A stretch of 64,000 bases of DNA, taken from the NCBI RefSeq assembly GCF_003334355.1, contig NZ_QOWP01000002.1. The stretch is one strand, 5' to 3'. The DNA is from Escherichia coli. Its GTDB lineage: Bacteria > Pseudomonadota > Gammaproteobacteria > Enterobacterales > Enterobacteriaceae. The notes below the pieces were generated by a model. That model was given only the letters and a program-made list of their open reading frames with translations, had not been told where the DNA came from and did no database searches. The first letter of the stretch is position 1. Every line of letters starts with the position of its first letter. Both the position numbers and the translations under genes were made by a program. This document shows, piece by piece, positions 51,838 to 56,371 of this stretch.

Positions 51838-53088
51838 CTACGCTAAACCAATAAAGAATCCTGCAATAGTAGCACTCATCAGGTTAGAAAGTGTCGCCGC
51901 CGCCAGCGCGCGTAAACCAAGTTGGGCGATTTCCGGCGCACGGTGTGGCGCAACCGCAGAAAACGCCCCCACCACCACCCCGATAGAACCAAAGTTAGCG
52001 AAACCGCACAACGCGAAAGAAATAATCGCCACGGTTTTAGCATCCAGAGTGCCACCCGTTTGCAGATATGGCGAGAAATTGAGATAAGCGACAAATTCAT
52101 TGATCGCCAGCTTCTGCCCAATCAAACTCCCGGCAAGATTTGCATCACTCCAGTCAACCCCCATCACCCACGCCAATGGGGCCAACAGGTAACCTAAAAT
52201 GGACTCCAGCGAGGCATGTGCAAAACCAAACCAGCCGCCAACGCCGCCGATAATACCATTAATTAACGCAATGATGGCGACAAATGCCATAACAACTGTC
52301 GCTACACCGGCGGCGATTTTCAGCCCGGTCATTGCCCCTGTCGCAGCGGCTTCAATAATGCTTTTTGGCGGTGTTTCGGTGAAAGAGAGGTTATTAAAGG
52401 AAACCTGCGAAGATTCCGTAGCCGGGCTTAACAGGCGGGCAAACAAGATCCCGCCTGGGATCGCCATTAACGATGCCGCCAGCAAATATTCCACAGGTAC
52501 GCCCAGGGCGGCGTAACCAATCATTGTCGAACCAGCAATCGAGGCCATGCCACTACAAATCGCTGTAAATAATTCATTGCGATTCAGACGATCGATAAAG
52601 GGTTTGACGATCGCCGGAATTTCGTTTTGCCCGAGGAAAATGGTGGTGACCGCGACGAATGACTCAATCTTGCTGATATTTAATGCTTTCTGGAATATAC
52701 CGCCGAGAATGCGAATTAAAATCCCCATCACACCGATGTAGTAGAGAATACTCACCAGTGCAGTGACGAAGATAATTGCCGGTAATACCCTGAAACCAAA
52801 GATAAATCCTGCGCCATCAAACAGCGTGTCCATTTTCGGCCCGACCAGCGAACCGAAGATAAATGCGCTACCCGCGTCGCTGTACGCCATCACTTTATGC
52901 ACGCCAAAAGCGACTTTTTCAGCGACCCAACGCCCTGGCGGTAACCAAAGCATAATCCCGCCAATCACGACCTGTAACACTAACGCCGCGCCAACGGTAC
53001 GCAGGCTGATCTTCTTCTTGTTTACTGACAGCAAAAACGCAATCGTCAGCAATACCACCATTCCCAGAACACTTCTCATGACATCCAT
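51838..53088 (-). CDS. nupX: NupX (YeiJ), CNT-family nucleoside permease (416 aa)
   Basis: Near-identical paralogue of PsuT in this window. Confidence 0.9.
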   Translation of the reverse strand: MDVMRSVLGMVVLLTIAFLLSVNKKKISLRTVGAALVLQVVIGGIMLWLPPGRWVAEKVAFGVHKVMAYSDAGSAFIFGSLVGPKMDTLFDGAGFIFGFRVLPAIIFVTALVSILYYIGVMGILIRILGGIFQKALNISKIESFVAVTTIFLGQNEIPAIVKPFIDRLNRNELFTAICSGMASIAGSTMIGYAALGVPVEYLLAASLMAIPGGILFARLLSPATESSQVSFNNLSFTETPPKSIIEAAATGAMTGLKIAAGVATVVMAFVAIIALINGIIGGVGGWFGFAHASLESILGYLLAPLAWVMGVDWSDANLAGSLIGQKLAINEFVAYLNFSPYLQTGGTLDAKTVAIISFALCGFANFGSIGVVVGAFSAVAPHRAPEIAQLGLRALAAATLSNLMSATIAGFFIGLA

Positions 53089-53187: not shown

Positions 53188-54129
53188 TTAATGGGTTTTG
53201 ATGTAGCCGCGCACGCACTCTTCGACTAAGCCCCAGAACCAGTCGGTATCAATAGTGATGCCGACTTTGGTATTAGCGGGCTTGCCAAGAACGCCCAGCT
53301 CGTCGCAGACGGTACGCCCATAGCAAGGGCCACTGTTGACGTCCACTTCGACGTACATCTCCTGGGTTTTAATGCCATCAGGGTTAATCAGATAACCGAT
53401 GCAGGTGGCGTCGTGCACCGGGCCGCCAGCCAGGCCGTAGTTTTCGAACTGCGTTTTGAGAGTGAAGTTCATGATGTCGCTGAACAGCTCTCCGGCAGGG
53501 CCGCCTGCCCTTTCCATCCGTGCAATCACGTCCGGGGTGCAAACGGTCTGGTTGGTGAGATCGAGGCCCATCATCACTAATGGAACGCCGGAGGTGAACA
53601 CCACGCGGGCTGCTTCCGGATCAGCAAAGATGTTGAACTCGGCAGATGGCGTGAAGTTGCCTGTACCGTAAGCGCCGCCCATTAGCACAATTTCACGGAT
53701 TTTGGGCAGGATCGCGGGTTGCATACGCATTGCCACCGCGATATTTGAAAGCGGACCAACCGGCACCAGAGTGATATCGCCATCGCTTGCCATCAGGGTA
53801 TCAATGATGTATTTCACCGCGTGGGTACTTTCTGCCTGGCGGGTCAGCGGCTCGAATACCGGGCCATCCAGTCCGGTTTCACCGTGAATATTATCGGCAA
53901 CGATTTGTTTACGCATAATGGGTTGCGGCATCCCCGCATAAACCGGAACATTAATCTCCAGTTTCTGGCAAACATTCAGGCCATTAATTAATGTTTTATC
54001 AAGCGTCTGATTACCCGCTACAATAGTGATGCCTAATAAATCTATTGCCGGATGTTTCGCTGCCATCATCATTGCAATAGCATCATCATGACCCGGATCA
54101 CAATCCAGAATAATTTTTCTCTTTTCCAT
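53188..54129 (-). CDS. rihB: RihB (YeiK), pyrimidine-specific ribonucleoside hydrolase (313 aa)
   Basis: Nucleoside hydrolase N-terminal DCDPGHDD motif. Confidence 0.9.
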
Positions 54130-54297
54130 TGTTTATTTCCTCTGTTTCCAGTTGCGTTATTTTTTCTACAGCAAAGAAAATTCGACCGGGCCGATGATTG
54201 AATCTTACCAACCGCGTACGTATGCTAAATATGAGAAATCTCATAGCGGATAAACATCGTGAAAGAAATCCACAATAATGATCTTAAGCAGCAATTG

Positions 54298-54957
54298 ATG
54301 AGTGAATCCGCGTTTAAGGATTGCTTTTTAACGGATGTTTCAGCCGATACGCGGCTGTTTCATTTTTTAGCGCGTGACTACATTGTGCAGGAAGGGCAAC
54401 AGCCGTCCTGGCTGTTTTATCTGACGCGAGGCCGCGCCAGGCTTTACGCCACGCTTGCTAATGGTCGCGTGTCGCTGATCGATTTCTTTGCCGCCCCCTG
54501 TTTTATTGGTGAGATTGAGTTAATCGACAAAGACCATGAACCGCGTGCGGTGCAGGCTATTGAAGAGTGTTGGTGCCTTGCGCTCTCTATGAAACATTAC
54601 CGCCCGCTGTTATTAAACGACACGCTATTTTTACGAAAACTCTGCGTCACCTTAAGTCATAAAAATTATCGTAATATTGTTTCTTTAACTCAGAATCAAT
54701 CATTTCCGTTAGTTAATCGCCTGGCAGCTTTTATATTACTCTCGCAGGAAGGTGATCTTTATCACGAAAAGTATACGCAAGCGGCAGAGTATTTAGGCGT
54801 TTCTTATCGACATCTTTTATATGTTCTCGCGCAATTCATTCACGACGGTTTATTAACTAAAAGCAAGAAAGGGTATCTCATTAAAAACAGAAAGCAGTTG
54901 TCAGGACTGGCGCTGGAGATGGACCCGGAGAATAAATTCTCCGGGATGATGCAGTAA
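54298..54957 (+). CDS. yeiL: YeiL, CRP/FNR-family transcriptional regulator (219 aa)
   Basis: Start trimmed to MSESAFKD to match the K-12 length. C-terminal HTH region. The ORF also allows an earlier ATG at 54259. Confidence 0.8.
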
Positions 54958-55027: not shown

Positions 55028-56278
55028 TTACGCCAGACCAATAAAGAACCCGGCAATAGTCGCACTCATCAGGTTGGAAAGCGTTGCTGCTGCCAGCGCC
55101 CGTAAACCAAGCTGGGCGATTTCTGGAGCACGTTTTGGCGAAATAGCCGAAAATGCGCCAACGACAACACCGATAGAACCAAAGTTAGCAAAACCACAAA
55201 GCGCAAAGGAGATAATCGCAATGGTTTTCACTTCCAGCGTGCCGCCCGTTTGCAGGTATGGGGAGAAACTCAGGTAAGCGACGAATTCGTTAATCGCCAG
55301 TTTCTGCCCAATCAGGCTACCCGCAAGATTGGCATCACTCCAGTCCACACCCATGATCCACGCCAGCGGTGCCAGCACATAGCCAAAAATACTTTCCAGA
55401 GAGGCATTGGCGAAACCAAACCAGCCACCAATTCCGCCGATAATGCCGTTGATCAGCGCAATAATTGCGACAAACGCCATTACCACCGTCGCTACACCAG
55501 CGGCGATTTTCAGCCCGGTCATCGCACCGCTCGCCGCCGCTTCGATAAAGCTTTTTGGCGGCGTTTCGCTGAACGACAGATTTTCAAATGTGACCTGCGA
55601 AGGCTCGGTGGCCGGGCTAAGAATACGTGCAAACAAAATACCACCTGGGATCGCCATCAGCGATGCCGCTAACAGGTAGTCAATTGGTACGCCCATTCCG
55701 GCATAACCAATCATCATCGAACCAGCAATGGACGCCATCCCGCTACAAATTGCGGTAAACAACTCGTTGCGATTCATGCGATCGATAAACGGTTTAACGA
55801 TCGCCGGGATCTCATTTTGCCCGAGGAAAATAGTTGTGACTGCGACAAAAGATTCGATTTTGCTGATGTTAAGAGCTTTCTGGAAAATGCTGCCAAGGAT
55901 GCGAATCAGCAGCCCCATCACGCCAATGTAGTACAGCAGACTGATGAGCGCAGTAACGAAAATAATCGCCGGAAGTACGCGAAAGGCGAAGATAAAACCC
56001 GCACCGTCAAACAGGACATCCATTTTCGGCCCAACCAGCGAACCAAAAATGAAGGCGCTACCGGCATCACTGTAAGACATCACTTTATGAACGCCTAATG
56101 CCGCCTGTTCTACTGCCCATTTTCCCGGTGGGAAGTAGAGCATGATGCCACCAATAGCGATTTGCAGCAGCAGTGCGGCTCCAACCGTACGCAAACTGAT
56201 GCTCTTTTTATTCACTGACAACAGAAATGCTATTGCCAGTAACACCACCATCCCCACAACACTTCTCATTATGTCCAT
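55028..56278 (-). CDS. psuT: PsuT (YeiM), putative pseudouridine/nucleoside transporter of the CNT family (416 aa)
   Basis: Paralogue of NupX in this window. First gene upstream of psuG-psuK on the same strand. Confidence 0.9.
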   Translation of the reverse strand: MDIMRSVVGMVVLLAIAFLLSVNKKSISLRTVGAALLLQIAIGGIMLYFPPGKWAVEQAALGVHKVMSYSDAGSAFIFGSLVGPKMDVLFDGAGFIFAFRVLPAIIFVTALISLLYYIGVMGLLIRILGSIFQKALNISKIESFVAVTTIFLGQNEIPAIVKPFIDRMNRNELFTAICSGMASIAGSMMIGYAGMGVPIDYLLAASLMAIPGGILFARILSPATEPSQVTFENLSFSETPPKSFIEAAASGAMTGLKIAAGVATVVMAFVAIIALINGIIGGIGGWFGFANASLESIFGYVLAPLAWIMGVDWSDANLAGSLIGQKLAINEFVAYLSFSPYLQTGGTLEVKTIAIISFALCGFANFGSIGVVVGAFSAISPKRAPEIAQLGLRALAAATLSNLMSATIAGFFIGLA

Positions 56279-56371
56279 AATGATTTTCCCTTCATGCCAG
56301 TAAACCCGGCGTCAGCGCCAGGTTTTGGTATGTTTGATGAGTACGGGCGACGGCTTTCTGCCCGTCAGAAA

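Follow-up and report, generated by a model that had tools for sequence, protein, structure and literature searches.

The stretch of Escherichia coli DNA analysed here, called the window throughout, is 64,000 nucleotides long and includes two divergently oriented genes, rihB and yeiL, whose intergenic region holds a short and perfect palindrome. The first of these genes encodes a ribosylpyrimidine nucleosidase and is probably co-transcribed with nupX, a transporter gene that follows it on the same strand, while the second encodes a regulator of the CRP/FNR family. The genes and the palindromic element are laid out as follows:

51838 to 53088, minus strand: nupX, NupC-family nucleoside transporter (TIGR00804), downstream of rihB on the same strand
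53188 to 54129, minus strand: rihB, ribosylpyrimidine nucleosidase (NCBIfam NF007417), divergent from yeiL
54230 to 54245, no strand: putative YeiL box, a 7-2-7 palindrome reading TATGAGAAATCTCATA, kept 5′ of yeiL-family genes
54231 to 54243, no strand: invariant core ATGAGAAATCTCA of the box, 13 consecutive invariant columns in a 14-sequence alignment (A2)
54259 to 54957, plus strand: yeiL, CRP/FNR-family regulator of 232 amino acids, with a GTG start at 54259 (open reading frame, Pfam, NCBIfam and a 699-nt RefSeq coding sequence)

An earlier note on this DNA had described a perfect 7-2-7 palindrome at 54230-54245, placed it in the divergent rihB-yeiL intergenic region, and put it about 100 bp from the rihB start. 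Its sequence (TATGAGA-AA-TCTCATA) and coordinates are both right, rihB lies on the minus and yeiL on the plus strand, and the distance to the rihB start (54129, minus strand) is 101 nt. The distance to the other gene depends on the start codon chosen for yeiL. Initiation at the K-12-style ATG at 54298 gives a protein of 219 amino acids and initiation at the GTG at 54259, from which the RefSeq annotation draws its 699-nt gene, one of 232. Comparison of orthologues identifies the GTG at 54259, not the ATG at 54298, as the conserved start: an ATG occupies the position equivalent to 54259 in 7 of 15 orthologues from the genome loci described below and in all four from Enterococcus, Hafnia and Izhakiella; the N terminus, MKEI...LKQQL, is conserved among orthologues; the ‘Met14’ that would initiate the K-12 form is Ile or Leu in most of them, some from Escherichia included; and the alignment to the NCBIfam model for YeiL (NF007707) begins at residue 1 of the longer protein. 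The palindrome consequently ends 13 nt before the conserved start codon, so that the spacing of about 50 bp given by the earlier note holds for the K-12-style ATG only and has to be given up for the GTG. A weak GGA Shine-Dalgarno sequence adjoins the palindrome on its yeiL side.

By itself, the palindrome is not beyond chance. The window contains five perfect 7-2-7 palindromes where dinucleotide shuffles lead one to expect 5.3 ± 2.1; shuffling of 54130-54297 (168 bp, the intergenic region if the K-12 ATG start is used) yields a 7-2-7 palindrome with P of about 0.017, and a palindrome with 7-nt arms and any spacer of 0 to 10 nt with P of about 0.14. The agreement between the observed and expected counts is what one would predict of a chance palindrome in AT-rich intergenic DNA, but such an origin is refuted by the conservation data set out below, since the box is invariant across genera whose neutral sites are saturated and recurs in two phyla, and its probability is vanishingly small. 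It is because of conservation, and not of palindrome statistics, that the element is judged real. Palindromes of other kinds occur in the window as well. Perfect palindromes with 7-nt arms and spacers of 0 to 10 nt are in excess across its whole length (87 versus 53.5 ± 8.0 in shuffles), an excess that is not specific to the YeiL box and likely stems from terminators and repeat elements. A second perfect 7-2-7 palindrome, CATTATG-TC-CATAATG, lies over the psuT start codon at 56267-56282, where it arises from coding sequence (ATG GAC ATA ATG) and illustrates that chance 7-2-7 palindromes do form here. The last codons of yeiL (54924-54945) hold a perfect 9-bp inverted repeat, CCCGGAGAA-TAAA-TTCTCCGGG, which contains GGAGA...TCTCC, reminiscent of the G-variant half-sites described below but with a spacing of 6 nt as against 2 nt, and which might form a terminator-like hairpin or be coincidental.

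When one genome per species was scanned for relatives of YeiL, 15 loci were obtained, from four Escherichia lineages, Citrobacter (two), Buttiauxella, Phytobacter, Entomohabitans, Klebsiella spallanzanii, Silvania, Cedecea, Ewingella, Enterobacter sp. 10-1 and one Enterobacteriaceae metagenome-assembled genome (MAG). The core ATGAGAAATCTCA stands unchanged upstream of yeiL in every one of the 15, always 12 to 14 nt before the start codon. Mean column identity in alignment A2 is 71%, against which the 13 consecutive invariant columns of the core stand out, and the core is still intact in the two most divergent genome loci, whose flanks cannot be aligned and whose YeiL proteins are 59-60% identical. 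Elsewhere in the intergenic region, promoter elements accept many substitutions in the same alignment, whereas the box does not. Fourfold degenerate sites of rihB give a measure of neutral divergence over these distances: at these, the non-Escherichia genera share 33-49% identity with E. coli, which amounts to saturation. Within E. coli, the rihB-yeiL intergenic region of the window is 100% identical to that of BL21 and other strains and is present in 5402 of 5426 complete genomes, and the stretch 54221-54258, 38 nt that reach from the predicted −10 hexamer up to the start codon, is the same in at least 5282 of 5371 records. On this comparative evidence the palindrome is functional and counts among the most constrained elements of the locus. 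The sequence GAGANNTCTC occurs once in the 64-kb window, with no second copy of the box near nupX, the psu genes or the fru genes or elsewhere in that window, and none was found within 3-4 kb of the gene in 19 longer loci, so that support at the level of a regulon is not forthcoming from these regions. One E. coli strain, LH13-b (NZ_CP100525.1; locus L006, 1531-2753), has an IS1A inserted 78 nt upstream of rihB and has had yeiL, psuT, psuG and part of psuK deleted, and has thereby lost both the box and the regulator.

The element extends well beyond these genomes. A protein search returned YeiL orthologues in Enterococcus (57-58% identity) and also in Hafnia and Izhakiella; the identical 16-mer is carried by Candidatus E. 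murrayae, Hafnia and Izhakiella, and the box of E. malodoratus, TATGAGAATTCTCACA, differs at two positions. Six metagenomic homologues with 39-46% identity each carry a single box shortly before the regulator gene (TATGAGATATCTCACA, TATGAGAAATCTCACA, TAGGAGATTTCTCCGA, TAGGAGATTTCTCCTA, TAGGAGATATCTCATA and TAGGAGATTTCTCATA), there being exactly one GAGA-NN-TCTC per homologue within 200 nt upstream, at 12 to 41 nt before the start codon. From 23 distinct loci in two phyla emerges the consensus TAKGAGA-WW-TCTCMTA. The A at base 2 and the GAGA/TCTC of the arms never vary among the 23, which makes A-GAGA-NN-TCTC the family-wide invariant part, and variation in the arms concerns base 3, which is T or G, and base 15, which is T or C. 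The box is absent upstream of YeiL homologues with 36% and 32% identity, and this range marks the limit of the motif. The 36%-identical homologue (locus L033, 2926-3000), whose helix reads SYRHLEKIM and whose gene is divergent from a nucleoside hydrolase gene, has in its intergenic region two ATAGGATA repeats instead of GAGA-NN-TCTC, possibly a diverged operator.

In all 15 genome loci the divergent neighbour of yeiL is rihB, or a gene of the IU_nuc_hydro type, followed in 14 of them, and also in Hafnia and Izhakiella, by nupX; an IU-nucleoside hydrolase gene is divergent from yeiL in all four loci of Enterococcus, Hafnia and Izhakiella too. What comes after the hydrolase gene differs between the phyla, with a NupC-type transporter in Proteobacteria, and a PfkB kinase, a Bmp lipoprotein and an ABC transporter in Enterococcus. 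An upstream gene could be identified in four of the six metagenomic contigs with a box (three encode a nucleoside hydrolase, one an MFS transporter), the other two having, respectively, a 43-residue fragment upstream and no upstream gene. Altogether, a nucleoside hydrolase gene is divergent from the regulator gene in 24 of 25 readable cases, a count that includes one distant homologue devoid of the box. Being the conserved partner gene, rihB is suggested as the main target, and it is a probable one for regulation through the YeiL box as judged from this association. The same box with a divergent hydrolase-PfkB-Bmp-ABC operon in Firmicutes (E. malodoratus and Candidatus E. murrayae; loci L022-L024) implies horizontal transfer of box, YeiL and hydrolase between phyla as one cassette. 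As to the wider neighbourhood in E. coli, nupX (51838-53088) and psuT (55028-56278), which flank rihB-yeiL, are paralogous NupC-type transporter genes with 88% identity, and the psuT-psuG-psuK block is missing from several orthologous loci, whereas rihB-yeiL is always retained.

The earlier note had proposed an operator for YeiL or for another dimeric regulator, and comparative evidence lends its support to YeiL. The protein comprises the Pfam domains cNMP_binding and HTH_Crp_2, with solved CRP structures as weak matches only, and the box is found upstream of yeiL-family genes in 23 loci, as would befit the cognate site of a protein with the CRP/FNR fold. The geometry is also that of CRP/FNR operators, with TATGA and TCATA centred 11 bp apart and G/A at ±4.5 and ±3.5 from the dyad, and G4, A5, T12 and C13 are invariant in the 23 loci. 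Changes in the two arms are either independent or symmetric (TAGGAGA...TCTCCTA, TAGGAGA...TCTCATA and TATGAGA...TCTCACA are all seen), which is the behaviour of a site bound by a homodimer. Recognition helices read SRETVGRI in CRP and TVETISRL in FNR, in contrast with the SYRHL-x-x-V of the YeiL family, which in E. coli YeiL takes the form SYRHLLYV; the E-SR recognition motif of FNR is absent from the YeiL helix. Moreover, the helix covaries with the site: where the helix is SYRHLLY, as in seven proteins, base 3 is always T in both half-sites, and all four proteins with QQ, MQ or LH helices have G at this base in at least one half-site, a correlation built on only 11 proteins that are not phylogenetically independent, but one that goes the way one would expect. 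The palindrome is very probably an operator of the YeiL family on these comparative grounds, and YeiL can be named with considerable confidence as the protein that would bind it.

Far less credible is the alternative that YeiL is merely a neighbour, and that the box is the operator of a different dimeric regulator, be it the nucleoside-catabolism repressor DeoR or an uncharacterised factor. It profits from the fact that the genes putatively regulated concern nucleosides, and from a match at 11 of 16 positions to the DeoR operator consensus, a 16-bp palindrome (TGTTAGAA.TTCTAACA); but a DeoR operator was rejected because the mismatched positions never vary among the 23 loci with the YeiL box. 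Any such regulator would, furthermore, have to be co-inherited each time that the box accompanies yeiL-family genes into Enterococcus and unrelated metagenomic contigs, and it would leave unexplained why base 3 of the half-sites tracks the recognition helix of YeiL. Nor does the sequence fit a site for either of the better known members of the family. The observation in the earlier note that the palindrome matches neither the CRP nor the FNR consensus is correct in itself, the match being 8/10 to TGTGA-N6-TCACA, with A instead of G at pentamer position 2 in both arms, and 6/10 to TTGAT-N4-ATCAA (as ATGAG-AAAT-CTCAT), for a protein without the E-SR helix motif; both candidates were discarded. 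In the part of the CRP Footprint-seq table that was covered, the only CRP site near here lies inside yeiL and none is at the palindrome, which also speaks against a different regulator. The comparative evidence implicates YeiL and no other factor. A strong CRP site, CGTGATAAAGATCACC, is indeed present on the minus strand at 54751-54766, within the yeiL coding region, and corresponds to the high-affinity intragenic ‘(yeiL)’ site of a 2026 Footprint-seq preprint.

With the sequences of 17 Enterobacterales and Enterococcus loci anchored on the box without gaps, promoter elements can be predicted on both strands of the E. coli region:

54194 to 54196, minus strand: predicted rihB transcription start, at standard spacing after the minus-strand −10
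54198 to 54203, plus strand: predicted yeiL −35, TTGAAT, 17 nt upstream of TATGCT
54202 to 54207, minus strand: predicted rihB −10, TAAGAT, its first base 30.5 bp from the palindrome centre
54221 to 54226, plus strand: predicted yeiL −10, TATGCT, 3 nt before the palindrome
54233 to 54235, plus strand: predicted yeiL transcription start, inside the left arm, 6 to 8 nt after the −10

On the plus strand, 12 of the 17 loci have a TAnnnT at precisely 3 nt ahead of the box, and at this offset the two Enterococcus sequences have TATGAT and TATCAC, the latter missing the final T. A TTGnAT lies 17 nt upstream of the plus-strand TAnnnT in both phyla: two bases of the yeiL −35, T79 and T80, are invariant in alignment A2, and Enterococcus has TTGCAT at the same ungapped offset. 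On the minus strand, all but one of the 17 loci have a TAnnnT at a distance of 22 nt from the box, the rihB −10 hexamer taking the form TATGAT in several other genera and, in Enterococcus, TATAAT; the invariant plus-strand columns A83, T87 and A88 of alignment A2 correspond to T−7, A−11 and T−12 of this hexamer. Inspection by eye revealed no good −35 element for the rihB promoter in either phylum, even where, in Enterococcus, the −10 is TATAAT. This arrangement suggests two overlapping, back-to-back divergent promoters. Beginning 3 nt after the predicted yeiL −10, the box would cover the transcription start of yeiL, with its centre at about +5, and lying with its centre 30.5 bp from the predicted rihB −10 it would occupy a position of about −42.5 in that promoter, 1 bp longer than the canonical class II distance of −41.5. 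The constant distance to the rihB −10 could arise incidentally, from both elements being anchored to the yeiL promoter.

Two further features were seen in this part of the region. Anjum, Green and Guest (2000) reportedly found expression of yeiL to depend on RpoS, Lrp and IHF and to be repressed by FNR, and a sequence 20 nt to the left of the palindrome (54198-54211, TTGAA-TCTT-ACCAA), which matches the FNR consensus TTGAT-N4-ATCAA at 8/10 positions and overlaps the predicted yeiL −35 and rihB −10 hexamers, could underlie that FNR repression. On the minus strand at 54182-54194, the very start of the predicted rihB leader, is a terminator-like hairpin, TCGGCCCGGTCGA followed by ATTTTCTTTG, whose stem region is not conserved in other genera and which may be relevant to the low expression of rihB in this species.

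Some explanations do without an operator. One is an RNA element, a small hairpin formed within the yeiL 5′ UTR or a long rihB leader, with an effect on translation or stability. The 16-mer can fold as a 6-bp hairpin (−4.4 kcal/mol, z = −4.2), in the 17 loci from Enterobacterales and Enterococcus it lies 12 to 16 nt before the start codon, beside the Shine-Dalgarno sequence, and paired T-to-G and A-to-C changes in two loci would preserve its pairing. In context, however, the fold is no better than that of shuffles (z = −0.8), unpaired changes in eight loci would break the stem (A.C, G.A, C.A or U.U), the start codon is anywhere from 12 to 41 nt away in different members of the family, and the predicted −10 only 3 nt upstream means that the transcript would begin inside the left arm. 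The element gave no match in an Rfam search, and no T-run stands beside the 6-bp hairpin; given the weak fold as well as the non-compensatory changes in the eight loci, an intrinsic terminator or structured RNA was rejected, and an RNA element of any such sort is very improbable. To the same slight degree one may entertain the absence of any dedicated regulator, with conservation arising from overlapping constraints on the core promoters and the initially transcribed sequence, or from a short upstream reading frame. The box does coincide with parts of both predicted promoters, the yeiL start and the rihB −35 region, and a short ATG-initiated frame exists from 54231 (ATG AGA AAT CTC), but the wide variation of promoter elements elsewhere in the intergenic region is at odds with the fixity of the box, and neither dyad symmetry nor symmetric arm changes in distant homologues are expected from promoter constraints. 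The short frame was itself dismissed, as it displays no synonymous variation and neither its frame nor its length is conserved.

How YeiL might act from an operator so placed can be proposed from the position of the box in both promoters. A YeiL dimer would read two TA(T/G)GAGA half-sites flanking an A/T dinucleotide; bound over the yeiL start, near +5, it would block its own promoter in a negative autoregulation, and bound near −42.5 of the rihB promoter, which is devoid of a recognisable −35 element, it would recruit RNA polymerase in the class II manner of CRP, FNR and PrfA. Activators of the CRP/FNR family classically work from a site centred near −41.5 to −42.5, and a promoter without a recognisable −35 is typical of activator-dependent promoters. 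That the box is a YeiL operator inside two divergent core promoters, from which YeiL would repress yeiL and activate rihB-nupX, is the reading that we favour on this sequence evidence, albeit by a narrow measure of confidence, and the sign of regulation at each promoter is likewise assigned with a confidence that ranges from even to a little above it. The main alternative to a mechanism that represses yeiL and activates rihB is that YeiL binds the box but represses both divergent promoters, with a signal that would release YeiL and so induce rihB-nupX. The evidence from conservation, gene association and the correspondence of helix to base applies to it equally, and the box overlaps the RNA polymerase region of both predicted promoters, namely the yeiL start and the rihB −35 region. 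In addition, laboratory strains of E. coli K-12 are reported not to express rihB, which would fit constitutive repression. Against dual repression stand the hydrolase promoter without a recognisable −35 in either phylum, even with a perfect TATAAT in Enterococcus, and the site centre at the position classically used for activation; we consider it unlikely, though deserving of attention. Repression of yeiL with activation of rihB-nupX, the preferred reading, has a difficulty of its own in that a yeiL-lacZ fusion reportedly showed positive autoregulation. Autorepression from a site near +5 conflicts with that result of Anjum, Green and Guest (2000), a study that may already have noted the palindrome at 54230-54245.

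YeiL has been described as a divergent, third CRP/FNR member of E. coli with a proposed role in post-exponential nitrogen starvation, it figures in one paper as one of the E. coli transcriptional regulators that bind Fe-S, and RegulonDB assigns it one regulated gene (yeiL itself), one site and no defined physiological regulon. The literature searched contains no description of a YeiL box, no mention of the core sequence in a bacterial context and no paper linking YeiL with nucleosides, and the reviews on Rih enzymes hold no regulation data.

The box is very probably, as its sequence and setting indicate, a CRP/FNR-family operator, thus of a known kind, with a distinctive 7-2-7 architecture that resembles the PrfA box. 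In Listeria monocytogenes, the latter is a 14-bp palindrome, TTAACA-NN-TGTTAA, located near −41.5, common to plcA and hly, and bound by the Crp/Fnr-family protein PrfA. The two have in common a palindrome with a 2-bp centre and specified inner positions, a single box shared by divergent genes, a bound dimer with the Crp/Fnr fold, and a centre near −41.5, the last two of which are predictions for YeiL; they differ in the half-site (TTAACA for PrfA, TAKGAGA for YeiL) and in their proteins, unrelated beyond the family fold. Unlike the PrfA box, moreover, that of YeiL overlaps the predicted start of the regulator's own gene, and its binding and activation are putative. With CRP sites the box shares the 16-bp dyad, G/A at ±4.5 and ±3.5, and TaTGA-N6-TCAtA (8/10), and with class II CRP-dependent promoters a predicted position close to −41.5 and a protein made of cNMP_binding and HTH_Crp_2 domains. 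It departs from them in that GAGA is needed up to the dyad, where CRP sites are degenerate, in lacking the pentamer G2, and in the helix of its protein (SYRHLLY, as against SRETVGR in CRP). FNR sites resemble it in protein family, dyad architecture and TGA...TCA core, but the match is 6/10 and YeiL has no E-SR motif. The LysR-type ilvY-ilvC system is a functional analogy only, with one operator for a divergent pair, predicted repression of the regulator gene and activation of a catabolic operon, and it differs from YeiL in protein family and in the architecture of the site.

Since 2000, YeiL has counted as the third CRP/FNR paralogue of E. coli, and the box would make its role directly testable by providing an operator conserved in two phyla, a corrected start codon and a linked target operon, which is rihB-nupX or, in Enterococcus, that of the hydrolase, kinase and ABC transporter. 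It also brings in a new candidate recognition code for the CRP/FNR family, in which the helix SYRHL-x-Y may read TATGAGA, together with a candidate specificity-determining residue. More tentatively, and at somewhat less than even probability, YeiL could represent a distinct CRP/FNR subfamily whose cNMP-like domain senses a nucleoside-derived (or redox/Fe-S) signal, and which controls hydrolase and uptake operons through a PrfA-like 7-2-7 box, TAKGAGA-WW-TCTCMTA, with regulator, operator and hydrolase forming a cassette mobile between Proteobacteria and Firmicutes. If this were true, the orphan ‘third CRP/FNR protein’ of E. coli would gain a role in pyrimidine nucleoside scavenging.
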